Shown one piece after another: positions 2,645-39,717 of a stretch of DNA of 64,000 bases (position 1 is the first letter of the stretch; every line of letters starts with the position of its first letter). Source of the DNA: an uncultured virus (IMG/VR IMGVR_UViG_3300023108_000018) (lineage: Duplodnaviria > Heunggongvirae > Uroviricota > Caudoviricetes); the IMG/VR virus record IMGVR_UViG_3300023108_000018, one strand, 5' to 3'. The notes beneath the pieces were generated by a model that saw only the letters and a list, made by a program, of their open reading frames with translations, ran no database searches and was not told where the DNA came from. The position numbers were made by a program, and so were the translations under genes.

Positions 2645-4360
2645 CTATTCTGCAATGCGACTGAAGTTTTTATGTTTCTCAAAACGAATCACATTCTCAA
2701 ACTTGTCATATAATACATCACCTTTATGACTAATAATAAATGCATTAGTCTTCTCTGTCAAGGTGTTTAGAAGTTTTAAGAAATCATCTGTTCCATTAGT
2801 GTCAAGTGAACTATCAAAAACTTCGTCTAATATCAATAGATTAGTGTTCACTGAGTTCTTCATACGTGCAACAGCTCTCCAAGTGAATAGTAATGATAAG
2901 TCAATCCTCATCTTTTCACCCTGTGAGAAGTTATCGTATTTGAATACATCCCTGAACCTAGACTTGATGGTTTCTTCAAATGATTCGTTTAATTCAAAAC
3001 CAACATAGAATTCTAATTGTGCAAGATACTTGTTAATCAGTTTGTTCATGATTGGAACGTACTGTTTGATAATCTTTTGTCTTACACCTTGATCACGTAG
3101 AAGTGTCACTGCAATATCATGATAGTGTTTCTGTTCTACTAAATTCTCTTTCTTTCTGTGTAGGATGTCTAAAGAATCTTCTTCAGTTTCTATTTCATCT
3201 TGTACATTATTGTTCCCTGTTTGTTCTTCCTCAAGTTTAGTGATCTCTCCTTGAATCTTCTTAATAAATTTTTGGTTTGAAACCACTTCCGATTGAAGAA
3301 GTCCGATATCCTTTTGTACCTTTTCGATACTATCCTGTACCTGTGAGATTTCGTCGAGTCTTGATTGTGCTGAATTAATCGTCTCCTCGATTGATGCAAT
3401 TGCATGGTTGATCTCATCTGCCTTCGCCTTGCGTTCTGCAATGTGTTTCTCCTTGTGTTCTTGATCTAACCCCTGTTTACACGTTGGACAGTCATCATTT
3501 TCCTCATAGAATTCGACATCTTTAATTGCCTTTCTACGAGCCTCTTGCAACTGTCTCTCCAATTCTGTTGCTTGTTTGAGTCTATCGCCTTGAGGGTCTT
3601 TATCCTTGATGGTGGATTTTTTCTCCACCACATCTTTCGTCTTTTCATCCACTTCTCCTAAAAGTTTATCGATGTTATTTTGTGTTTCATCAACGGTGGA
3701 TTCATACTGTTTGATTTTCTTTTCACGATTTTCACGAAGTGCATTGAGTTGATTATTAAGTCCGTTGATACGTTCTTCTAATATTTCAATTTCATGATTA
3801 TTGTCATTCACTTCAATCTTGTGGTCAGAAATCTTTTTCTTTAGTATGTCAGACATAGTTGTAAAGATAGAGATATCCAACAAGTCTTCTACAAGTTTAC
3901 GTCTTTCAACTGCCTTTAACTGCATGAAAGGTGTAAAGTTTGCAGAACCTAGTATTGCGACTTGAGTAAAGGAACGGTAACTCATTTTGAGTACGTTCTT
4001 TTCTAGGTGTTCTTGATAGTCTCTCATGGTTGCATCTTGATTGATAAGTACATCATTCATGTACAATTCAAACTTATTTGGTTTCGCACCACGGAGTACT
4101 TTGTATCGTTTCTTACCAATATCAAACTCAACCTCAACTACAAGGTCACGTCCATTGATAGAATTGATAAGAAGGTCTTTCTTGAGATTACGGAACCCTT
4201 TACCATAGAGTCCAAAACAAAGTGCATCTAATAGGGTAGACTTCCCTGCACCATTCTCTCCCAAGATTAATGTTGTTTGATGTGAGTCTAGTTGTATTTC
4301 AGTAAACTTGTTACCTGAGCTCAGTAAATTTTTGTATCTTACTTTTCGAAAATTTATCAT
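2645..4360 (-). CDS. gp46: recombination endonuclease ATPase subunit gp46 (Rad50/SbcC-like)
   Basis: Walker A GENGAGKS, CPTC zinc hook, FSQGE signature, LILDE Walker B. Confidence 0.97.
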   Translation of the reverse strand: MINFRKVRYKNLLSSGNKFTEIQLDSHQTTLILGENGAGKSTLLDALCFGLYGKGFRNLKKDLLINSINGRDLVVEVEFDIGKKRYKVLRGAKPNKFELYMNDVLINQDATMRDYQEHLEKNVLKMSYRSFTQVAILGSANFTPFMQLKAVERRKLVEDLLDISIFTTMSDILKKKISDHKIEVNDNNHEIEILEERINGLNNQLNALRENREKKIKQYESTVDETQNNIDKLLGEVDEKTKDVVEKKSTIKDKDPQGDRLKQATELERQLQEARRKAIKDVEFYEENDDCPTCKQGLDQEHKEKHIAERKAKADEINHAIASIEETINSAQSRLDEISQVQDSIEKVQKDIGLLQSEVVSNQKFIKKIQGEITKLEEEQTGNNNVQDEIETEEDSLDILHRKKENLVEQKHYHDIAVTLLRDQGVRQKIIKQYVPIMNKLINKYLAQLEFYVGFELNESFEETIKSRFRDVFKYDNFSQGEKMRIDLSLLFTWRAVARMKNSVNTNLLILDEVFDSSLDTNGTDDFLKLLNTLTEKTNAFIISHKGDVLYDKFENVIRFEKHKNFSRIAE

Positions 4361-5424
4361 AGATAGTTATGTTCATCAAGGGCTTCATTATATAATGAGG
4401 TCATCAAATCTGTAAGAGGTTTTTTCTTCCCTTGAATGTCGAGACCTTCTATGTACTTTGTGAGGATGGTTAGAGTGTCTTCAACGTCACCCATATCTTC
4501 ATCATCCATAAAGTCCATGTGTTTATTATCGTCAACAACTGAAACATGAAGAGGACTTACTGCATGTATTTTGTCTAAGAATGTATCAAACCAATAAGGA
4601 TTGTCTTTATTGACAACTACAATCTTAGTAAACTTACCAGTGTATTTTGAGTAATCTGCATTTGATATTGTTTCAAATGTTTCCTTTGTATCATCATAGA
4701 ATGCCTTTTCAAACATTGTAATAGGATTGTGTACAGGAAGTAGATCACGTGTTTCAGTATCAAAGATATGAAAGTGTTTACCATCACCATAGTCAGACCA
4801 AGTGAATTGCATCTGAGACCCTAGGTATCTGATATTTGCGAATTCAGATTTTTGATGGAAGTGTCCACTTAAAACTTTCTCGAATCGTTTTACATAAGAA
4901 TGGTCAAGTCCATGTTGACACGTCATGCCTGGCATCATCAATGCACCTTCAAATTCGAAGTGTCCCATACACCATTCTGCATTTGCGTTCATTAAGAATT
5001 CAACTGAGTCTGCATAGTTCTCAGGATTAATCCATGGAACCAGTGCAACATTAAACCCATCAAAATCCTTTACAATAGGTTCAGAAATAACGTTAACGTT
5101 TGGTTGATTGTATAACAACAACTCAGGTGCATTAACATCATTGGTATTCTTATAATAGGTGTCATGGTTACCTAGAATCAAATCCATAGTAATCCCACGT
5201 TCATTCATAGGTTCTATAAAGTGATCTAGATTTGCCTTCATAGATGCAAAGTTAATATACTTTCTTCTATCAAAGTAATCTCCTAGGTGGACAATGTGTT
5301 TAATATCATGTTCATCCAAATATGGAAAGAACACTTCATTATAAAAACGACCTTGATATTTGGCCATTTCAATCATGTCACCTCTGACACCACAATGGGT
5401 ATCGTTCAGTATCGCAAATTTCAT
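4357..5424 (-). CDS. gp47: recombination endonuclease subunit gp47 (Mre11/SbcD-like)
   Basis: DTH, GDYFD, GNHD and GHFH phosphoesterase motifs; adjacent to gp46. Confidence 0.96.
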   Translation of the reverse strand: MKFAILNDTHCGVRGDMIEMAKYQGRFYNEVFFPYLDEHDIKHIVHLGDYFDRRKYINFASMKANLDHFIEPMNERGITMDLILGNHDTYYKNTNDVNAPELLLYNQPNVNVISEPIVKDFDGFNVALVPWINPENYADSVEFLMNANAEWCMGHFEFEGALMMPGMTCQHGLDHSYVKRFEKVLSGHFHQKSEFANIRYLGSQMQFTWSDYGDGKHFHIFDTETRDLLPVHNPITMFEKAFYDDTKETFETISNADYSKYTGKFTKIVVVNKDNPYWFDTFLDKIHAVSPLHVSVVDDNKHMDFMDDEDMGDVEDTLTILTKYIEGLDIQGKKKPLTDLMTSLYNEALDEHNYL

Positions 5425-24840: not shown

Positions 24841-25542
24841 TTAGAAGATTGGGTTCCCCTCTGAGTCTATTTCAAATAGAAATTCATCAGGGTCGTGGTC
24901 AAAATTACTACAATTACTTCCATCAGGATGATGGTATTTTACTTCCATATTAAATGAGATACTATAACGATCTTTGTTACTCATGTTAGGTTCAACCATG
25001 TGCATCAAACCACTTGGGAACAGAATTAACCTTCCACTTCTTGGTTCGATATTATGACTCATTCTAAACCTAGGTGAATTAGGATGGTCAGAAACCACCT
25101 TTGTGTCTTTATCTATTAATGAAATGCATCCTTCATCACCCTCTGCATGAACGTAAAATACACCACTATACCAACAACCATTATGTAAGTGTGGAGCATT
25201 CCATGCAGAAAAATCGTTAATATTAGCCCATGAGTTACCTATATTTACTGTACACTTAGTTTGGTCTATACGATGAAACGGTAAAACCTCATCTTTAAAT
25301 TGTTGTTCTATCTTTCTCATCAATTGACTAAGTGCAGGATTTGATTCACAACCATCTACTGATTGCCATCCTGTATATTGGTTAGATACTTGTCTACCAG
25401 CAGGGTCTCTCTTTCTCATACCATCCATTGCATCTCTGCACATTTTAAGATAGTCTTCAGTGACACCTCTACGTTGATCTAGTTCAGGGTCTAATAAATC
25501 CTTCTCAAATACAAAGTTTGGAAATAATAATCTAACTGCCAT
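24841..25542 (-). CDS. putative 2OG-Fe(II) oxygenase (TIGR02466-like)
   Basis: WANIN...PHLH...SGVFY, LFPSGLMHMVEPN...RYSISFN. Confidence 0.85.
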   Translation of the reverse strand: MAVRLLFPNFVFEKDLLDPELDQRRGVTEDYLKMCRDAMDGMRKRDPAGRQVSNQYTGWQSVDGCESNPALSQLMRKIEQQFKDEVLPFHRIDQTKCTVNIGNSWANINDFSAWNAPHLHNGCWYSGVFYVHAEGDEGCISLIDKDTKVVSDHPNSPRFRMSHNIEPRSGRLILFPSGLMHMVEPNMSNKDRYSISFNMEVKYHHPDGSNCSNFDHDPDEFLFEIDSEGNPIF

Positions 25543-26425
25543 TATCTAAATCTAACTCCAATTGGTTTTCTGTTTCTTCACTTACAACTTTATGAAAAGG
25601 ACATTCAGGTGGTGGTGATTCTTCTTTATAAAACTTACCCTTCGGTTGCCAGTATTCACCTTTTCTATATGCACCCATTTGTAATGATACATTTCTTTCT
25701 TCATCACTCAACCCCTTATGTCGACCCCACTCATCCATAGATTTTGCATATTTACCATCTAAGTGAGTTGTCACACTAGAACGATTCTCTTGAAATGTTT
25801 GATGGTCGAACTGCATGTACGATGCATTCCATTCTTCTCTTTTGAAAGGTACAACCTGACATAGTGGTGTACCTTCCTTAATGGTAAATGATTTCTGTAC
25901 CTTTGGATAAAATATGATTTGTGCATTATCCATGTTACTGTTAAATGTATCAGTATCAATAATTCCTTGCCATGTTGCAAAGTATTGATTCTGAAATAAG
26001 AAGGGGTCTAAGTAGAAACATGAATAGCCTGGAGGTGTAACAATGTTCCAAGGGTTTCTCATTTTGAATGCATCATTGACAGGGCCATGAGTACCCATGT
26101 ATTCAAATGCATTTCCCATTTGTGTATGATTATGTGAAGGTGATGCATAACCATCGTTCTTATCTTTAGTATAGAACTCTGTTGAATCGGAATCTGTTCC
26201 TACACCACAGTTAACTTCCATATCTCTATTTGCAACGAGATACCATCCCATCTTTAACCAGTCATCCATTGCAGGACAGGCACGTACTGTTGTTATACGT
26301 TTTCCATGTACATCCATACCAACCTTGAGGGTTTTCCACCACTCAGGTTGAACCGTTTTCGCAAGAACTGGTCTAAAGTTCTTAACCGTGTCCGTATCGT
26401 ATGAATGGAATTCTATCGTCGGCAC
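25532..26425 (-). CDS. conserved phage hypothetical protein associated with oxygenase clusters
   Basis: CPAMDD, NPWNIVTPPGYS, GIIDTD and GTPLCQVVPFKRE motifs. Confidence 0.7.
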   Translation of the reverse strand: MPTIEFHSYDTDTVKNFRPVLAKTVQPEWWKTLKVGMDVHGKRITTVRACPAMDDWLKMGWYLVANRDMEVNCGVGTDSDSTEFYTKDKNDGYASPSHNHTQMGNAFEYMGTHGPVNDAFKMRNPWNIVTPPGYSCFYLDPFLFQNQYFATWQGIIDTDTFNSNMDNAQIIFYPKVQKSFTIKEGTPLCQVVPFKREEWNASYMQFDHQTFQENRSSVTTHLDGKYAKSMDEWGRHKGLSDEERNVSLQMGAYRKGEYWQPKGKFYKEESPPPECPFHKVVSEETENQLELDLDNGS

Positions 26426-27125
26426 TGTACTTCGTCCTCCTGTCTGTTAATTTAACCTCGTCTCCTCTGATTACTATGGAACGTCTATCCATGTATCTTG
26501 CACTTTCATTTGGTGCATCTGCACCATGAGGTATTCTACCATCAAATAAAACTAAACGATTTGGTACAAATTCCACTTCTGCAATTTGATGGTTTTTAAT
26601 ATGTTCGTTTCTTCCTTGAAGACCCTGTTGTGGTGAATCATAAATTCTTAATGTACCACCCCATTTAGGGTTCCAAAATCTGTTATAATAATATAAAAAA
26701 GATAAGTTCCAATCATCATGATCATCACAATCTGAGTGTGTAGTTCCATGACATCCATGTGTTTGAGAATTTAAACCTGCATACTGAAATCTAACCCACT
26801 CAAATTCAAAATCTGTTTGAAGTTTTCTATTAAACCAAATCGGAACGACTGCATCTAAACGATCAATATCTCCTTCAAGATTGTCCCCACGAAGAAAACT
26901 TGCACCCCAAAAAGAATGCATGGGTAATCCTGTAGGATTGTCTCCACCGACTTGATTGGTTTTAGACCAAATTGATGTTCTAGTAAATAGGTTGTCTATG
27001 TGGTGATGAAGTTCATCACTTAAATAATTATCTATTACATAAACTTTATCTAAAGGCAACTCGCAAATTTTAAAAGGTTCGTCTAAGTAGACGACCTCTA
27101 ATTGATCATCATCCTGTTTGACCAT
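26382..27125 (-). CDS. 2OG-Fe(II) oxygenase (prolyl-hydroxylase-like)
   Basis: HSD, WGGTL, PNRLVLFDGRIPHGA...R; likely start MVKQ at 27125. Confidence 0.85.
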   Translation of the reverse strand: MVKQDDDQLEVVYLDEPFKICELPLDKVYVIDNYLSDELHHHIDNLFTRTSIWSKTNQVGGDNPTGLPMHSFWGASFLRGDNLEGDIDRLDAVVPIWFNRKLQTDFEFEWVRFQYAGLNSQTHGCHGTTHSDCDDHDDWNLSFLYYYNRFWNPKWGGTLRIYDSPQQGLQGRNEHIKNHQIAEVEFVPNRLVLFDGRIPHGADAPNESARYMDRRSIVIRGDEVKLTDRRTKYSADDRIPFIRYGHG

Positions 27126-27696
27126 TTCCCTGCGTTTCCATATAAGAGTCAGGAGCAAGTAACGGTGTTGGTATAACAACACAGTAGTCATCTACTTCCT
27201 TTAAGAAATCCTCTCTAGTGTTATTAATTTCATCTTCGATTTGTACATAACAACACCACACTGCATCAGCATATTCTGCAACTCTTCTGGCCGCTGACCT
27301 TCTAGGATGTGAAGACCCTTCTCTACCTGCAAAAACAACTTCAATCAAATCATCAAAACCGTATCTATGCACAACCTCTTTAATGAATTCATGACAAATA
27401 TTATTGATTTCTTGTTTGTGTTGTTGATTTAAATTAAAACCGATAGGTGGTTCAGAGTTTTCAATGTATAGTTCAATCGCATCCTTTTCTTCATCTGTTA
27501 AGGGAAGTGCATCTTGTTTTTCAAAATCTACACCATCTTTCCATTTTACAATCTTAATTTCTAAGTCTGCGTACACTAACATTTCATAATCAAAACCCAA
27601 GTCAGGTGCATCGCAATTGTCAAAACTGTATCTCAAACCATTAGGTTTAGTGATTTGTAGATTACCGTCTTCTGTAAATATTAATTCACTTTTCAT
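27109..27696 (-). CDS. hypothetical protein, possible tail-fibre assembly chaperone-like
   Basis: acidic 195 aa; YGFDD...YADAVW segment resembles phage fibre-assembly proteins (impression only). Confidence 0.45.
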   Translation of the reverse strand: MKSELIFTEDGNLQITKPNGLRYSFDNCDAPDLGFDYEMLVYADLEIKIVKWKDGVDFEKQDALPLTDEEKDAIELYIENSEPPIGFNLNQQHKQEINNICHEFIKEVVHRYGFDDLIEVVFAGREGSSHPRRSAARRVAEYADAVWCCYVQIEDEINNTREDFLKEVDDYCVVIPTPLLAPDSYMETQGNGQTG

Positions 27697-27716
27697 TTAT
27701 TAAATACCTCTTTCAT

Positions 27717-27745
27717 ATTATAACCTGTCATTGACTTTTTGTCAA
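27717..27745 (-). promoter_or_regulatory. consensus sigma70 promoter for the oxygenase block
   Basis: TTGACA-N17-TATAAT; the -35 box lies in the palindrome TTGAC-N5-GTCAA. Confidence 0.85.
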
Positions 27746-29310
27746 GCAAGTACTCTCCATTTTTTATAGATGTCTAAATTATTTATGTGGTCACAATCCA
27801 TACCTTCTACCCAAGGGCCTCCCCTAGTATAATGGATACCACTGAAATCCCACTTAACATCAGGGTCATCATATCCTTCTACAAATATGTATTTCTCAGG
27901 AATCTTACTGATCTTATCAGTCCATTCAAACTGATGGAGTTGTTTACCTGTCCAAGTGTTCACTGTTTCAGGTGTAAGTTTTTTACAATCTTCATGACCA
28001 TTATTAAATATCATCATACTAGACCATAATTTTTTTGGATAGTCTATGTTCACTTCTCCGTTAAACTTAGTTTCATCATGTTTATATTGAGGATACTGAA
28101 TACATGCAACTGCATCATCAGGATGTAGATAATAGAACATAGGTAATAAAGTTTTTTCAAAAATAAAATCATCATCTATGAAAATACTAAAACCCTCGTA
28201 ATTTTCTAAGTAAGGAATTAAAAACCTACTGTATGTAAACTCTGTTGATTGATTTGCATACTCTCTAGTATATTCAGGTATCTTTGATACATCTAATAGT
28301 TTTATTTCAGGTTCGTATCTTATTTCATTAATTAAATGTCCTGCACCTGTATCTTTAAAAATACTTTGTTCAATAGAAATTTTAGATACTTCTGCGAGGT
28401 TACCATGTCTACTATCGTAACCAATGTAAATGTTTAATGGTTTACCTTTACTTAAACTATGAACCTTTTTATTCCAATTGTAAATTTTTGGTCTGAACTC
28501 TTGCACATTCATCAGGTTACTGTTATATTCTAATGCACCCTGTATCAGTGTGAATGACACATTATAGTGTCCACCCATACCCATTCTTTGTCCAAGGTCT
28601 TCTCGTAGACTTAATTTGGTTTTCCAATACTCCATGAAATCTTCGAATCCAATGGGTTCTTGATCGATGGTGTCGTATGCATCTGTAATACACAATTCCA
28701 TATCAGGGTCACCCATCTCTTCAAAACAACCTGAACGTATAGAGCCTGGATGAATTCTTAGTTGATATCTACTATCTTTAACTAATTCTATTACTTGTCC
28801 TTGTATAGGTGCCCAAAGACCATCTTCTTGTATACTGTGTATTAACCAATGTGCCTTTGCACTATGGTAATACATTGAGTTTAAAGATTCTAAATCTCGT
28901 TTGGATAATGCATATTCTTGTTCATTGACATGATCTCTTAAATCAATATACTCACCATTTGTATCGACTGTATCCATACCTGCAATTTGATTTTCATGAT
29001 TGGGACGAGGTTTTTCAGTCCATCCTACTGGTAAGAATTTATGATAACATGGTGATTCGTTTTTTAGTCCATTGAACAAAGACCACTTTTCTCTTTTTCG
29101 TTCTTTCTCAAAATCTCCCCATTTAAAAATTTTTATAGGGGGTATAATTTCTTCAAAAACATATTTAAGAATTGCGTATGTTTCTTTATCCTTGTATTCT
29201 TGATCTAATTGAAGTGACCCAAAATGATAATAGGTATCTTTCCAGTCAGTTTTACCTGCTAGTTCTTCTTTTGCTTGGGATACGGATTCTATTTTAATAA
29301 AATTACTCAT
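27742..29310 (-). CDS. glycosyltransferase (GT-A, GT8/CDI-like C-terminal domain) with an extra N-terminal domain
   Basis: IYIGYDSR, STEFTYSRFLIPYL, IFIDDDF (DxD), YPKKLWSSMM, HYTRGGPW. Confidence 0.82.
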   Translation of the reverse strand: MSNFIKIESVSQAKEELAGKTDWKDTYYHFGSLQLDQEYKDKETYAILKYVFEEIIPPIKIFKWGDFEKERKREKWSLFNGLKNESPCYHKFLPVGWTEKPRPNHENQIAGMDTVDTNGEYIDLRDHVNEQEYALSKRDLESLNSMYYHSAKAHWLIHSIQEDGLWAPIQGQVIELVKDSRYQLRIHPGSIRSGCFEEMGDPDMELCITDAYDTIDQEPIGFEDFMEYWKTKLSLREDLGQRMGMGGHYNVSFTLIQGALEYNSNLMNVQEFRPKIYNWNKKVHSLSKGKPLNIYIGYDSRHGNLAEVSKISIEQSIFKDTGAGHLINEIRYEPEIKLLDVSKIPEYTREYANQSTEFTYSRFLIPYLENYEGFSIFIDDDFIFEKTLLPMFYYLHPDDAVACIQYPQYKHDETKFNGEVNIDYPKKLWSSMMIFNNGHEDCKKLTPETVNTWTGKQLHQFEWTDKISKIPEKYIFVEGYDDPDVKWDFSGIHYTRGGPWVEGMDCDHINNLDIYKKWRVLA

Positions 29311-29342: not shown

Positions 29343-30044
29343 CTATGTAATCGGTGTTGCTGGCCACTGTTGTGACAATACACCATCCCATCTTGCGACA
29401 GGAGTTCTACCTTGTCTAGCATACGTTGCAGGTTGTCTGTTCTGATATGTGAAAGGTGTTTGACCTTGTCTCGCATACGTACTAGGTTGTCTGTTTTGAT
29501 ATGTGAACGGTGTCTGCGAGTTCGAAGGATTTCTATATGTAAACGGCGACCTGTGATTATATGTAGAAGGTTGTCTTGCGTTTGCAATATAAGGATACGG
29601 TTGTTGTGCATCCCTAATGTTAGGTTCCTGTGCATTCTTAATAGTAGGTTGTTGTCCATTTCTAATGTTAGGTTCTTGTGCATTCCTAATATTAGGTTCT
29701 TGTGCATTTACTGGATTTCTATATGTAAATGGTGACCTATAGTTATATGTAAACGGTTGTCTTGCATTTGCACGATATGGAACCCTATATGTAAATGGCA
29801 CTCTATATGTAAAAGGTTGTCTCGCATTCGCAATATAAGGAACACGATATGTGAAAGGTGACTGATAAGTCACAGGTTGTTGTGCGTTAGCAGGGTACCT
29901 TGCACTGTATGTGAAAGGAGACTGATAAGTTACAGGCTGTTGAGCATTCGCAGGATATCTTGCGTTGTAAGTAAACGGTGCTTGGCTGTTGACCGTGGCA
30001 CGAGCCTGACCTTGCATCGATTGTCTGTGGAAACCTGTTGCCAT
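29343..30044 (-). CDS. Pro/Tyr/Gln-rich repeat protein A (zipper partner of 30063-31367)
   Basis: 26 Pro-terminated units of 6/8/10 aa (aa 24-215); GAGG RBS upstream. Confidence 0.85.
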   Translation of the reverse strand: MATGFHRQSMQGQARATVNSQAPFTYNARYPANAQQPVTYQSPFTYSARYPANAQQPVTYQSPFTYRVPYIANARQPFTYRVPFTYRVPYRANARQPFTYNYRSPFTYRNPVNAQEPNIRNAQEPNIRNGQQPTIKNAQEPNIRDAQQPYPYIANARQPSTYNHRSPFTYRNPSNSQTPFTYQNRQPSTYARQGQTPFTYQNRQPATYARQGRTPVARWDGVLSQQWPATPIT

Positions 30045-30062
30045 CTTACTTAATTCCTCTCA

Positions 30063-31367
30063 TTATTTCGTACTAATATTATGAACCATTAAACTATTTG
30101 CAAAGAAGTTATGATGTGGACTGTCTACACCAAAGTGATAAACCATCTCTTCATCTGCTTCTTCTATAGATTCAATAATTGACTCTGATAAATTTTGTTT
30201 TAAAATTGCATTGTTGATGTCTTTAATTGCATCACCGATCTGCAATTCTCCGTTGACTTCTTTCATGTCATCGGCATGTCCTAATTCTACTTCTTTATTC
30301 CAATCTTCTAAATTAATAACCTTCCATCCCTGATCTTCAACATAGAATGGATGACCACCTGTTACTTTTAACCACCCACCGTCTGTAAGTTGTAGTTTAT
30401 AAACTTTACACTCTCTTGGTTCCATGACATTTGATACACTTACTCTTTCCAGTTCGTTACTTTCTAGATTAAGTGAATACACCACATCACCCACTTGGAT
30501 GTTTTCTATAGGTGTCATTGAAGTGTCACCCATCCAAACTTGTGTTCCAGCAGCGAAACATCCTCCTCCACCGTAGAAGTAAACTGCTAAGAAACGGAAA
30601 GGATATGTATACGGTTGTTGCGAAGAACTAGGTTGTCTTGCGTTTGCAATATAAGGCACCCTATATGTAAACGGTGATCTAAATGCAACTGGTTGTCTTG
30701 CGTTAGCAATATAAGGTACTCGATATGTGAAAGGAGACCTAAATGCAACTGGTTGTCTTGCGTTTGCAGGATATCTAGCATTATACGTAAATGGTGTTTG
30801 ACCGTTTGCAGGATATCTAGCATTTGCAGGATATCTAGCATCATACGTAAATGGTGTTTGTCCGTTTCTTATATTAGGTTGTTGTGCATTTACAGGGTTT
30901 CTATATGTAAATGGAGACCTATGGTTATAGGTAAACGGTGATCTGTGTTGATACGTAAATGGTGACCTATGTTGATACGTAAATGGTGACCTATGTTGAT
31001 ACGTAAATGGTGATCGACCTGTTGCCTGATACGTGAAAGGTGTTTGTGCGTTCCTTATATTAGGTTCTTGTGCATTTACTGGATTCTGATATTCTGCAGG
31101 TTGTCTTGCGTTTGCAATGTAAGGTGTTTGTGCGTTTGCAATGTAAGGATAAGGTTGTTGTGCGTTAGCAATATAAGGCGTCTGACTGTTTGCAATGTAA
31201 GGATAAGGATTTTGAGTTGCTTCTTGACCTGATGCATTATTCCACCCTGTAGGTGTCTTAATATAAATCTGATCAACTGCTTTCCATGCTGTGGGAGTCT
31301 TTACCCATGCACCCCTAGTTGCATTCCAACCTGTAGGTGTTTTTACGCTTTGATTACCTGATGCCAT
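30063..31367 (-). CDS. repeat protein B: 3x (V/I)KTPTxW cap + Pro-repeat region + C-terminal Hint domain
   Basis: repeats at aa 55-246; GGGG|CFAAGT, TGGHPF and HNFFANSLMVHN Hint motifs. Confidence 0.88.
   Translation of the reverse strand: MASGNQSVKTPTGWNATRGAWVKTPTAWKAVDQIYIKTPTGWNNASGQEATQNPYPYIANSQTPYIANAQQPYPYIANAQTPYIANARQPAEYQNPVNAQEPNIRNAQTPFTYQATGRSPFTYQHRSPFTYQHRSPFTYQHRSPFTYNHRSPFTYRNPVNAQQPNIRNGQTPFTYDARYPANARYPANGQTPFTYNARYPANARQPVAFRSPFTYRVPYIANARQPVAFRSPFTYRVPYIANARQPSSSQQPYTYPFRFLAVYFYGGGGCFAAGTQVWMGDTSMTPIENIQVGDVVYSLNLESNELERVSVSNVMEPRECKVYKLQLTDGGWLKVTGGHPFYVEDQGWKVINLEDWNKEVELGHADDMKEVNGELQIGDAIKDINNAILKQNLSESIIESIEEADEEMVYHFGVDSPHHNFFANSLMVHNISTK
30946..31015. repeat. about three 24-nt tandem coding repeats (RSPFTYQH)
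   Basis: gttgatacgtaaatggtgacctat units. Confidence 0.85.
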
Positions 31368-31401: not shown

Positions 31402-33030
31402 TTAGGAGTATAAAATCCACAAATCACCAACTGCACCATCTGAAGAAGTTGGAGCAGAGGTTGATTGATACACATTCCTTGCAACACCACCACTGTTATT
31501 TGCGTAGTTTGTAGTAATTTGTGTAAATTCTACGTTTGATGATGTTGATACTGCCTGACCGATTGCAACTTCACCTGAACTGATTGAAACACCAGTTCCT
31601 GCAGTGATATGAGCTCTTACTTCAGCAGCACTTGGCCCTGTGTATGTAATTGTTCCACCACTGTATGCAAGTGAACCATCTCCACCAGCGTCAGTTACAG
31701 TAATTGCAGCTCTCGCTCTTGTATCAGTATAATACAAGTTGGATGACCCTTCTGAAACATCGTCTGTATCATGGTTTGACACATCTGAAACTGTTCCAGT
31801 TACATTACCAGTTAGGTTACCTTCGAATGTTCCTGCAACAAAAGTTTCTGAACCTACTGTCCATTTGTCATTTGTTTCGTCCCAAAGAAGTGTCTTAGCA
31901 GTAGAACCACCTCTAGTGACACTAATACCTGTATCTTCTGTAGGTGAACCTGAAGTGAAGTTACTGTTTAATGCAATGATATTATCTGCAAGGTTAATTG
32001 TTTCTGAGTTTACAGTTGTTGTAGTTCCTGAAACTGTTAAGTCACCTGAGACTGTTAGTGAATCATTAACTGCAACTACACCTGTTCCGTTTGCAGTAAG
32101 AACTAGGTTTGTATCTGCACTTCTTGACTCAATTGCATCTACATCAATTGAGTTTGAAAATGAGATTGCATTTCCATCTGATGAAGCAACGTTTGAACCT
32201 GCCTGTACTGAGATCGGCCCTTTTAATTGGATACTACCTGAACCTGTTGGGTCTAATTCAACGTCACCTGAACCTGATGTTTGGACACTAACATTTTGGT
32301 TCGCATCAGCAGAAACAACGATTGTTCCTGAACTATCTGATACTACTTGTTGACCGTTAACATATAATGACCCTGGCCCGACATACACATCTCTCCAAGT
32401 ATATGAAGATGAACCTAAGTCGTATGTGTTGTCTGCACTTGGTACGATATGACCTGTTACGTCTGAATCTGCAGTAAGTGTTATACCTGCGAATGAAGGT
32501 TTATCTGAAGTTCCAACTGCCTGACCGATACTAACTTCACCTGAACTGATTCCAACACCAGTTCCAGCAGTGATATGTGCCTGTACTTCTGATGCACTAG
32601 GCCCTGTGTAAGTGAGTACACCTGTACTGTTATCGTATGCAAGTGAACCATCTCCACCTGAATCTGTTACTGAAATCTTTCCTCTGATAGCAGCGTCAGT
32701 AATTGATAAATCAACTGCACCGTCTCCTGCATCATCGTAAGATGCAGTAATGTTAGTATGTGAACCGTTAGTTACTAACTGAGCACCAACGATATCTTGA
32801 ATTTCTTCTTCAGTTTTACCAGTTGATGAGATTGTGATAGTGTCGTTTGTATCATCATAAGTTACAGTTGTTGAACCTGAACCTTGAATGATACCACCAA
32901 TCTTATCTGCAATTGCTTCGTCTAAAGCAGTTCCTACTGCACTTGCAGTGATACTACCTGAACTATCAATGACTTCGGTTGTACCAACCGTAAGTCCGTT
33001 CTTGATTATGAAATTCTTTTCTCCTGCCAT
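31402..33030 (-). CDS. tail fibre protein
   Basis: G/S/T-rich; [18 protein letters not shown] shaft motif; internal duplicated TDxGGDGSLAY...HITAGTGV block; C-terminal SAPTSSDGAVGDLW. Confidence 0.8.
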   Translation of the reverse strand: MAGEKNFIIKNGLTVGTTEVIDSSGSITASAVGTALDEAIADKIGGIIQGSGSTTVTYDDTNDTITISSTGKTEEEIQDIVGAQLVTNGSHTNITASYDDAGDGAVDLSITDAAIRGKISVTDSGGDGSLAYDNSTGVLTYTGPSASEVQAHITAGTGVGISSGEVSIGQAVGTSDKPSFAGITLTADSDVTGHIVPSADNTYDLGSSSYTWRDVYVGPGSLYVNGQQVVSDSSGTIVVSADANQNVSVQTSGSGDVELDPTGSGSIQLKGPISVQAGSNVASSDGNAISFSNSIDVDAIESRSADTNLVLTANGTGVVAVNDSLTVSGDLTVSGTTTTVNSETINLADNIIALNSNFTSGSPTEDTGISVTRGGSTAKTLLWDETNDKWTVGSETFVAGTFEGNLTGNVTGTVSDVSNHDTDDVSEGSSNLYYTDTRARAAITVTDAGGDGSLAYSGGTITYTGPSAAEVRAHITAGTGVSISSGEVAIGQAVSTSSNVEFTQITTNYANNSGGVARNVYQSTSAPTSSDGAVGDLWILYS

Positions 33031-34170: not shown

Positions 34171-34178
34171 TATTTATA
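34171..34178 (-). promoter_or_regulatory. T4-type late promoter
   Basis: TATAAATA 5 nt before ATG. Confidence 0.75.
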
Positions 34179-38556: not shown

Positions 38557-39717
38557 TTATATTCCTAATGCCTGTCCATAAGTTGCGTTTAATGATATCA
38601 TACCATGACTATATGTTGATGTATATACATTATTACTTGAATCCACACCCTTAACTGTGAAACTAACACCTTGTGCTTGTGTCCATGTAGTACCATTAGG
38701 GTTTGGGCCGTTTGGTGTTACACATGCCTTCCACAGGAATTGTCTTGCACCACTAGTTGGAACACTATAGTAAGTACCTGAACTATATCCAGCGTTAGTT
38801 GGTAATGGCCCTGAACTATAAGAGTAACAATAACTTGAACTACAGTCTTTACCACTACATGCTTGACTTGATACATCATATTTTACTGTAAATGTGGAAC
38901 TGGTTGTCAATAGACCTTGATATAAAATGTAATCAGAATAAACAGTCGCCTGATATTGATTTGTATAACCAAACCACAATGCCTTAATAGAACTTTGGGC
39001 AGTTGCATTTGAGAACTCCATTGAACACCCTACCTCAGGTGGAGGGTTTGTGGATGCTCTTGATTGCGTAGTATACCAGTACCCAGCTGAACCAGTACCA
39101 GGCCCCCAAACTTGTTCTAGTGGGTCATAGATATATGCAGCTGGTTGTCTTGCATTATAAGACGATCTTGCGTTTGCAATGTATGGATAAGGTGTTCTTC
39201 CTATAAATGGAGACTGATATGAATATGGTGTTTGACCAATTGTAGGCACTGGTTGTTGTGCGTTACTAGGTGATTGATATGACTGTTGTGCATTTCTAAT
39301 CACTGGTTGTTGTGCATTTGTAGGATTTCTATATGTAAACGGTGACCTATAGTTGTACGTAAACGGTGATTGTTTATTTGCTGGTACCTGATATGTAAAT
39401 GGTGTCTGCGAATTTGCAATATAAGGATTCGCTTGTTGTGCCGAATATGTAAATGGTGATCTGTGTTGATAAGTAAACGGAGACCTAACAGTGTAATTGA
39501 AAGGTTGTTGTGCGTTTCTTATAAACGGAGATTGTTGAACAGCAGGTGTCCTATATGTTACAGGTTGTCTGTTGTTGTATGTTAGGGGTTGTCTTGCCTG
39601 TGCAGGTGTTCTACCAGTTGCCTGTTTGGTTTCAGGTGATTGTGCGTTAACTACTGCTTGCCCTTGATAGGGTTGTTGGAAAGTCGTCCCTGTGTTTATA
39701 TAGATTTCATCAGCCAT
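38557..39717 (-). CDS. repeat protein D: Pro-repeat region + C-terminal Cys/Tyr/Ser-rich domain
   Basis: repeats at aa 17-192; about 190-aa non-repetitive C-terminal domain with 5 Cys. Confidence 0.85.
   Translation of the reverse strand: MADEIYINTGTTFQQPYQGQAVVNAQSPETKQATGRTPAQARQPLTYNNRQPVTYRTPAVQQSPFIRNAQQPFNYTVRSPFTYQHRSPFTYSAQQANPYIANSQTPFTYQVPANKQSPFTYNYRSPFTYRNPTNAQQPVIRNAQQSYQSPSNAQQPVPTIGQTPYSYQSPFIGRTPYPYIANARSSYNARQPAAYIYDPLEQVWGPGTGSAGYWYTTQSRASTNPPPEVGCSMEFSNATAQSSIKALWFGYTNQYQATVYSDYILYQGLLTTSSTFTVKYDVSSQACSGKDCSSSYCYSYSSGPLPTNAGYSSGTYYSVPTSGARQFLWKACVTPNGPNPNGTTWTQAQGVSFTVKGVDSSNNVYTSTYSHGMISLNATYGQALGI

Follow-up and report, generated by a model that had tools for sequence, protein, structure and literature searches.

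Mirrored arrays of proline-ended units in two adjacent genes of an uncultured T4-like phage suggest antiparallel, register-coded pairing of two putative fibre proteins

Why should two neighbouring genes, read from the same strand, encode repeat arrays that are the reverse of one another at the level of the protein? The question is raised by genes A and B of an uncultured virus (IMG/VR record IMGVR_UViG_3300023108_000018; Duplodnaviria, Heunggongvirae, Uroviricota, Caudoviricetes), of which we analyzed a stretch of 64,000 nucleotides, called the window below. A preliminary description of this DNA had proposed that the two proteins form a long antiparallel zipper with its register written into the repeat units. 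Our analysis of the window and of homologous loci indicates that A and B probably pair antiparallel and in register, as a beta-type fibre shaft belonging to the host-recognition cluster of the phage. Both genes lie on the same strand, as had been noted; it is the minus strand, with B upstream and A following it. Their parts are listed here.

30063-31367, minus strand: gene B, an open reading frame (ORF) of 434 amino acids with a head, a 26-unit array, a Gly run, a Hint domain and a 4-residue tail
31206-31367, minus strand: B head, residues 1-54, with the motif (V/I)KTPTxW three times; the most conserved part of B
30630-31205, minus strand: B array, residues 55-246, of 26 Pro-ended units, each of 6, 8 or 10 residues
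30561-30629, minus strand: B linker, residues 247-269, SSSQQP YTYP FRFLAVYFY GGGG; the turn end of the array
30078-30560, minus strand: B Hint / intein-splicing domain, residues 270-430, assigned from a PF14890 match and motifs
30045-30062, minus strand: spacer of 18 nucleotides between B and A, with GAGGAA, which resembles a Shine-Dalgarno site
29343-30044, minus strand: gene A, an ORF of 233 amino acids with a 23-residue leader, a 26-unit array and a conserved tail
29400-29975, minus strand: A array, residues 24-215, of 26 units, the mirror of the B array
29346-29399, minus strand: A tail, residues 216-233, VARWDGVLSQQWPATPIT; conserved, and adjoining the B head in the mirror register

We parsed both arrays by cutting after each Pro and keeping a leading YP within its unit. 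Residues 55-246 of B then give the unit lengths 10,8,10,8,6,6,8,10,8,8,8,8,6,6,8,8,6,6,8,6,6,6,8,6,6,8, and residues 24-215 of A give exactly this series reversed, in 26 of 26 units and over 192 residues in each protein, just as the preliminary description had reported. The unit lengths of A permit 3.5e9 distinct orderings. At the best mirrored offset the two arrays have 26 Pro boundaries in common, while 500 unit-order shuffles reach 19 at most. Facing units are also complementary in kind. With F denoting a unit that has an aromatic third residue (FTY-type) and N denoting anything else (NA(Q/R)-type), the facing units are of opposite type at 24 of 26 positions, and the sole two exceptions are the ones already pointed out, VAFRSP facing VTYQSP. 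Shuffling the A units within their length class yields a mean of 13.0 and a maximum of 22 positions of opposite type, and 0 of 20,000 shuffles reach 24.

The window pair is not an assembly oddity of one sample, because the identical B/A pair occurs on two IMG/VR contigs (L001 and L002) and contigs from one DNA run and three RNA libraries match it at 99% or more, breaking inside the repeats. The DNA run and the RNA libraries may stem from one campaign. The contigs of the three RNA libraries extend over parts of both genes and across the B/A junction, although such contigs are no proof of transcription.

Some local features of the arrays bear on how they change. At 30951-31031, B has three identical FTYQHRSP units encoded by nearly identical 24-nucleotide repeats, and the duplication or conversion that made them is therefore recent. 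The A units that face this run have diverged (NIRNAQEP, NIRNGQQP, TIKNAQEP, NIRDAQQP); it is type and length that are matched, not unit identity. Separately, a minor variant is present inside the A array, at 29682-29734, in contigs of one DNA run and one RNA library. At its joint the sequence goes back 53 bases with 7 letters between, which amounts to a tandem duplication of 60 nucleotides (20 residues), and no matching change in B was seen in the contigs that carry it.

Is the mirror peculiar to this pair? When viral contigs were scanned with B, 80 loci emerged; 78 of these have two adjacent array genes, and two (L040 and L057) are cut by the contig end. Merging identical pairs left 54 distinct B/A pairs, all from viral metagenomes, in which we counted boundaries in residues from two conserved anchors, the end of the B head and the start of the A tail. 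In the mirror register 2005 of the 2305 Pro boundaries coincide. The Jaccard score is at least 0.9 in 37 of the 54 pairs and perfect in 11; if the final 30 residues at the turn end are set aside, 29 pairs are free of discordances and 39 have two or fewer. The arrays span 162-532 residues and fall into 40 distinct architectures, and therefore both genes change together. The controls score far lower: the median is 0.23 when B is set against the A of another locus (n=2846) and 0.01 when the units are compared in direct, unmirrored order, and unit-order shuffles average 0.12 with a maximum of 0.5 (n=10800). The cognate A is best or tied best for 41 of the 54 B proteins, and for 10 more just one non-cognate A scores better. 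The mirror is also kept in three loci where A precedes B (L005, L007 and L015). The gap between the genes is at most 51 nucleotides in 41 pairs, with start and stop overlapping in 5.

The complementarity of types extends across these loci as well. Opposite types face each other in 1840 of 1925 facing units, against a mean of 1129 and a maximum of 1184 when units are shuffled within their length class. The remaining facing units comprise 70 F-F and 15 N-N pairs, and the F-F pairs are nearly all 6-mers, e.g., VAFRSP/VTYQSP and RGYRNP/VGYQLP. The earlier work had asked whether homologous arrays always mirror one another; over 54 pairs and 40 architectures the comparison speaks strongly for it, with four pairs out of step, which are weighed below. 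An independent contig binned in a metagenome-assembled genome (MAG), L090, keeps the mirror as well (23 of 23). It is one of three such relatives (L090, L091 and L092), on contigs of 25-121 kb binned in MAGs of Sphingobacteriales, Rhodobacterales and Flavobacteriales. These are probably mis-binned phage DNA, and we read no host from three different orders.

If the arrays do lie side by side, which residues would meet? We calculated the excess mutual information between positions of F units and positions of the N units facing them, using distinct F/N pairs only (357 8-mers, 166 6-mers and 106 10-mers). A signal appears at odd positions only, and it runs antidiagonally, which contact between antiparallel chains would predict. 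Among 8-mers the couplings are, in bits, F1-N7 0.67 and F1-N5 0.80, F5-N3 0.77 and F5-N1 0.74, and F7-N1 0.52 and F7-N3 0.57; the same-end coupling F1-N1 is weak (0.11). The summed signal in 8-mers and 6-mers is largest along the line on which the two positions add up to the unit length (i+j = L), and the strongest coupling in 10-mers, F1-N9, falls on the same line. We therefore favour the register i+j = L, in which Pro would face Pro and the invariant Tyr3 would face a small residue at N5, mostly Ala. At even positions (Thr/Ile2, Asn/Gln4, Arg/Gln6 and Pro) the residues are conserved and show no covariation with those of the partner.

The claim that the units are of even length holds for 4273 of 4310 units (99%) across the homologues, and since nearly all are even, an extended, beta-like conformation is suggested. 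Equal residue counts on the two sides, a period of two residues and a single coded face together point to antiparallel beta pairing. From established strand geometry, these three features argue against helices, against polyproline-II (PPII) with its period of three, and against an alpha/PPII hybrid. A shaft of 192 residues would measure about 60 nm if a fully extended strand is assumed (192 x 0.33 nm). Structure prediction is neutral on these points. A complex prediction with residues 1-268 of B and 1-233 of A, run on separate alignments and with no controls, scored 0.00 and says nothing for or against binding; AlphaFold2 applied to A alone, on a 39-row alignment, gave no secondary structure at a mean predicted local distance difference test (pLDDT) score of 39.7 and is uninformative. 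Among PDB chains, phmmer with A gave only one chance match (E 0.27, an esterase), and the profile from the alignment of B (A1) found nothing at E<=1. The best score in the ESM Atlas was 0.81, below the meaningful level, and one row at 0.78 with gp37_trimer is a lead only.

Could A simply be the opposite strand of a B-like sequence, that is, an antisense or inverted-duplication artefact? Long open frames do run opposite both arrays. However, when ungapped identity is scanned at every offset from -60 to +60, the highest value for the B array against the reverse-complemented A array is 0.34, no more than background, in agreement with the earlier statement that facing units are not reverse complements of each other as DNA. 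Comparisons with one array only reversed or only complemented are at background, too. A direct comparison of the two arrays reaches an identity of 0.44, because the unit vocabulary is common to both genes. A repeat search found four inverted pairs of 15-18 nucleotides, none of which links the two arrays, and the opposite-strand translations are unlike either protein. We regard this origin as practically out of the question.

A second pair of array genes occurs in the window.

38557-39717, minus strand: gene C, 386 amino acids, the first partner, with a Cys-rich C-terminal domain of approximately 190 amino acids
37839-38555, minus strand: gene D, 238 amino acids, the partner of C

C and D use the same unit vocabulary as B and A, and at the best mirrored offset they have 17 Pro boundaries in common, which 0 of 500 shuffles equal. 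The cross pairs are at chance: 86 of 500 shuffles are as good for B with D, and 85 of 500 for C with A. Mirrored partners together with cross pairs at chance fit an address code, with two non-mixing duplexes in one phage. The head-like motif of the second pair is split, with VYVNxxGT occurring once at the N-terminus of C and twice at the C-terminus of D. The C-terminal domain of C has only 2 homologues; AlphaFold2 on 3 rows predicts it to be all-beta with a pLDDT of 43.8, too weak for a fold search.

In one case both halves are found in a single chain. The MAG contig L092 encodes, at 4001-5137, one ORF of 378 amino acids with a B head and an A tail, in synteny with the window. Its two arms, of 142 and 138 residues, lie around a Gly/Pro-rich turn, and this gives weak support to an out-and-back hairpin topology. 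The ORF may have arisen through a rare natural fusion or through a deletion in the assembly. It is without a close homologue, the best match having 43% identity over 71% of the length, and no protein of the 324 retrieved combines a head with a tail.

How would the two proteins be arranged? In the model suggested by these comparisons, B would run outward from its conserved N-terminal head and A would return alongside it in the opposite direction, so that the conserved C-terminal tail of A would end beside the head of B. Each Pro-ended unit would face one that equals it in length and is opposite to it in type, aromatic FTY in one chain against small or polar NA in the other. The chains would be extended and beta-like, Pro would face Pro, and the odd positions of both would lie on one coded face, with Tyr3 over Ala5 and positions 1, 5 and 7 against 7, 3 and 1. 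The succession of unit lengths and types would serve as an address, setting both register and partner and letting two pairs coexist unmixed. Physical pairing, beta conformation, the polarity of the ends, presence in the virion and trimerisation are what we infer from the sequence comparisons. Trimers are the usual state of phage fibres, and the data would suit a simple heterodimer as well as a trimer of such heterodimers. Our opinion is evenly divided on a broader proposal, namely that the arrays constitute a sequence-addressable protein duplex with a binary unit alphabet in three or four lengths, resembling base pairing for beta strands, in which order would fix register and partner, at least two orthogonal duplexes (B/A and C/D) would be made per phage, and compensating insertions would change the length.

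The two ends of the proposed shaft differ in conservation. In the alignment of B (A1), 38 of 42 invariant columns are within residues 1-59, and in the alignment of A (A2), 17 of 23 are within residues 178-231, so that one end, that of the head and tail, is constant while the opposite end varies. The end with the B head and the A tail is probably the attachment end, and the end with the B C-terminus and the A N-terminus is probably the distal tip. Judged from the tails of the 54 pairs, the C-terminus of B takes several forms: a Hint domain in approximately 12, an unrelated domain of approximately 150 amino acids in approximately 12, and a short Gly-rich stub in the rest. In thirteen of the 54 loci (L010, L018, L019, L026, L049, L054, L058, L060, L061, L067, L069, L075 and L078) B and A lie approximately 300 nucleotides apart, with an ORF of 64-100 amino acids in the gap (86-100 in 12 of them; the longest in L019 is 64), and in most of these loci B ends in a domain other than Hint. 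A small assembly-factor gene (gp38/Tfa) often follows a phage fibre gene, according to the accessible portion of a published account (PMC9659904). By position, then, the gap ORF would correspond to the assembly factor of T4- and lambda-type fibres.

Several observations weigh against antiparallel pairing in register, or limit how far it can be taken. Four pairs (L017, L028, L035 and L074) lose step midway, and the register resumes at offsets of exactly 44, 88, 44 and 18 residues, respectively. They are variants of well-matched pairs in which a higher-order block has been gained or lost in one gene; L016 and L017 have B in common, and L027, L028 and L035 have one partner in common. They may reflect either collapse of repeats in short-read assembly or real intermediates one step away from a match, so that either the mirror match is not absolute or some metagenome assemblies have collapsed repeats. 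The divergent MAG pair L091, which has long, Pro-poor units, shares only 25 of 94 boundaries when parsed by cutting at Pro. The arms of the L092 ORF do not mirror each other in Pro spacing, having 4 boundaries in common, and 1670 of 2000 shuffles are as good. Positions that covary between facing units are also coupled within units (NIR against YIA; HRS against NRQ or ARY), and because of this the exact register is favoured and not proven. Kinship inflates the pair counts; identical pairs were collapsed and distinct unit pairs were used for the mutual information, with no tree-aware correction. Finally, the case that A and B pair is built from sequence comparison, and no cultured phage carrying the genes was found among 50,697 phage records, so that they cannot be looked up in a virion.

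Other roles for A have to be considered. It might be an assembly ruler or register chaperone that pairs antiparallel with B only transiently and is then released, the mature fibre consisting of B alone, e.g., as a homotrimer. The mirror and the code would fit transient pairing as well as permanent pairing, a small assembly-factor gene often follows a fibre gene (the gp38/Tfa arrangement described in the accessible portion of PMC9659904), and AlphaFold2 finds no confident fold for A alone, which we do not count as evidence. Such a chaperone would nevertheless be costly, being as long as the B array and growing with it up to 532 residues. The 13 loci in which B has a folded C-terminal domain already have an ORF of 64-100 amino acids in the chaperone slot, A has a conserved tail of its own beside the B head, and the single ORF of L092 would keep both arms in one molecule. 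On balance a chaperone role seems unlikely. It is also conceivable that A and B are not in contact and that both lie, in opposite directions, along a common third periodic partner such as a fibre protein or a polysaccharide. A common template could explain the mirrored lengths, and the even positions, conserved and without covariation with the partner, may form a face that contacts something constant. Such a template would have to vary in step over 40 architectures, yet the loci contain no third array gene that covaries, each having only two high-scoring array genes, and it leaves the opposite-type rule (1840 of 1925) and the antidiagonal covariation without a reason; we consider it very unlikely.

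Nor does an absence of any pairing account well for the data. Each protein would then serve as a Pro-rich spacer or coat, extended or disordered and perhaps modified through hydroxylation or glycosylation by the neighbouring enzymes, and the mirror would be a by-product of how the repeats arose. Two 2-oxoglutarate/Fe(II) (2OG-Fe(II)) oxygenases and a sub-threshold GT8-like protein encoded just downstream speak for this view, as does the failure of AlphaFold2 to find a fold for A alone. Yet no nucleic-acid process gives a mirrored, type-inverted order on the same strand without reverse-complement similarity, chance is excluded by the shuffles, and each protein mirrors its own cognate partner in particular, even where the number of units has changed greatly. 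We find this explanation highly improbable. Register-coded antiparallel pairing of A with B is the sole account that covers the mirror, the type rule, the cognate specificity, the antidiagonal covariation and the even period, and it is for this reason that we prefer it. The zipper put forward in the preliminary description is accordingly supported by the mirror, the type rule, the specificity for the cognate partner, the covariation and the even unit lengths.

Near its C-terminus, B of the window carries a module that appears to lie outside the zipper. Residues 280-430 match the PF14890 profile (E 1.2e-11; 45.1 bits against a cut-off of 35.8, which places them in the family). An N-terminal Cys or Ser, a block-B TxxH and a C-terminal His-Asn are the defining Hint motifs; in B they correspond to Cys270, which directly follows GGGG, to TGGH and to the terminal VHN430. 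Canonical splicing requires Cys, Ser or Thr after the terminal Asn, whereas B has Ile431, and its homologues have G, M, F or R after the Hint Asn. With no nucleophile in that place, we file the domain as bacterial intein-like (BIL) or self-cleaving instead of as a canonical intein. BIL-type domains do not need a nucleophile at +1 to cleave or splice. The likeness to BIL/Hint domains thus lies in Cys1, the TxxH block and the terminal His-Asn of residues 270-430, the difference in the Ile after Asn, and it concerns the C-terminal module only, not the zipper. Only approximately 12 of the 54 B homologues have the domain, and those without it end in a Gly run and a few residues, often with Lys last. 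The domain looks like an optional, self-removing, BIL-like insert. It would be a long shot that a Hint thioester at the B C-terminus is resolved by the nearby N-terminal amine of A, closing the hairpin covalently.

How widespread are the genes? B has 456 homologues at E<=1e-3, and all 8 of the 8 homologue clusters looked up are metagenomic and are without a name or named only "hypothetical" or "uncharacterized." A profile search of 1.84 billion representatives returned 205 proteins at E<=1e-3 and 109 at E<=1e-10, counts that indicate a family that is real but narrow. Gene A belongs to no PHROG family and matches no Pfam family above the cut-off; a Cementoin match (E 0.0024, below the cut-off) was dismissed as compositional.

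The genomic surroundings are those of a fibre module. PHROG matches on the same strand, flanking the genes, identify the window as the structural operon of a T4-like myovirus, containing baseplate wedge, a VrlC-like protein of 2363 amino acids, fibre-like genes, the two pairs, enzymes, neck, sheath, terminase, portal, scaffold and the major capsid protein (MCP). The B/A pair is among the fibre genes, between the giant VrlC-like gene and the neck genes. The neighbours closest to the pair are given here.

31402-33030, minus strand: fibre-like gene directly upstream of B, a phrog_697 structural protein ending in ...DLWILYS
24841-29310, minus strand: enzymes downstream of A, among them a 522-amino-acid protein with a sub-threshold GT8 match (E 0.017)
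26382-27191, minus strand: 2OG-Fe(II) oxygenase, PF13640, preceded by an ORF of 195 amino acids
24841-25542, minus strand: second oxygenase, PF13759, preceded by an ORF of 297 amino acids

On L092, the counterpart of the upstream fibre-like gene has a matching C-terminal ending and the same position, and the enzymes downstream are in the same order as in the window. The T4 late-promoter motif TATAAATA does not occur directly upstream of B; the nearest copies on the same strand are at 34178, 37243 and 37843.

The region between VrlC and gp14 has been described as a host recognition cluster (PMC7029224), and the B/A region matches it as far as the accessible portion of that paper defines it. This portion mentions fibres and glycosyltransferases and no such repeats, and the words "proline" and "intein" do not occur in it. 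The MCP of the window shares 64-67% identity with its counterparts in Methylophilales phage Melnitz and the Pelagibacter phages HTVC008M and Mosig, and a search of the whole genomes of these three phages with the A profile gave 0 candidates. Searches of the 50,697 phage records with the region (blastn) and with B (tblastn) gave no match; the low-complexity filter may hide the arrays from such searches, but hardly the Hint part.

If the proposed pairing is correct, these genes would offer a natural design for very long, thin two-chain beta structures with register and partner held in a unit code. A coded register and partner are known for nucleic acids, coiled coils and collagen heterotrimers, and we found no such description for beta strands. 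Protein designers would gain hundreds of natural, length-variable and mutually orthogonal beta zippers. The pairing would also explain how fibre length is tuned in the host-recognition cluster of abundant uncultured marine T4-like phages related to those of SAR11 and OM43. Matched segments of A and B can be tested directly from the sequence. Six of the array unit peptides do not occur in the literature text searched, and listings and abstracts, subscription journals aside, yielded no description of a two-protein mirror pair of this kind.

What known structures does the proposed shaft resemble? The nearest is the gp37 needle of the T4 long tail fibre, which is short and binds iron through His (HxH). 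In the accessible portion of a published account its strands run out to the tip and back, forming a six-stranded antiparallel needle (Bartual et al. 2010, as described in PMC9659904). The out-and-back topology is similar, and so is the setting, a T4-type tail-fibre module with a small assembly gene beside the fibre gene. In gp37, however, both strands belong to one chain of a homotrimer, whereas here they are encoded by two genes in 54 of 54 pairs on viral contigs, L092 alone having a single ORF. A and B have no similarity to any PDB chain, neither array has an HxH motif, and the arrays span 162-532 residues with a pairing code at the level of the unit. A collagen-like triple helix differs in sequence pattern, the A/B consensus being FTYxxRSP or NIRNAQxP with no G-X-Y pattern.

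Other paired repeats offer further analogies. Antiparallel and heterodimeric coiled coils, such as leucine zippers and the arms of SMC and Rad50, hold long segments together with register and partner written in a short repeat and with arms of equal length, and the likeness is that complementary repeats pair side by side in register. The A/B arrays differ in having Pro every 4-10 residues and a two-residue period, which exclude an alpha-helix (no heptad pattern is found), and in a code made of binary type and length instead of heptad a/d/e/g positions. In the stalk of streptococcal antigen I/II, an Ala-rich helix is wound with a Pro-rich PPII helix, antiparallel, within one polypeptide and with unequal residue counts per repeat. 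There, too, complementary repeats pair antiparallel into a long thin stalk; in A and B, by contrast, two separate chains would be joined, and their facing units are equal and even in length, implying the same extended conformation in both.

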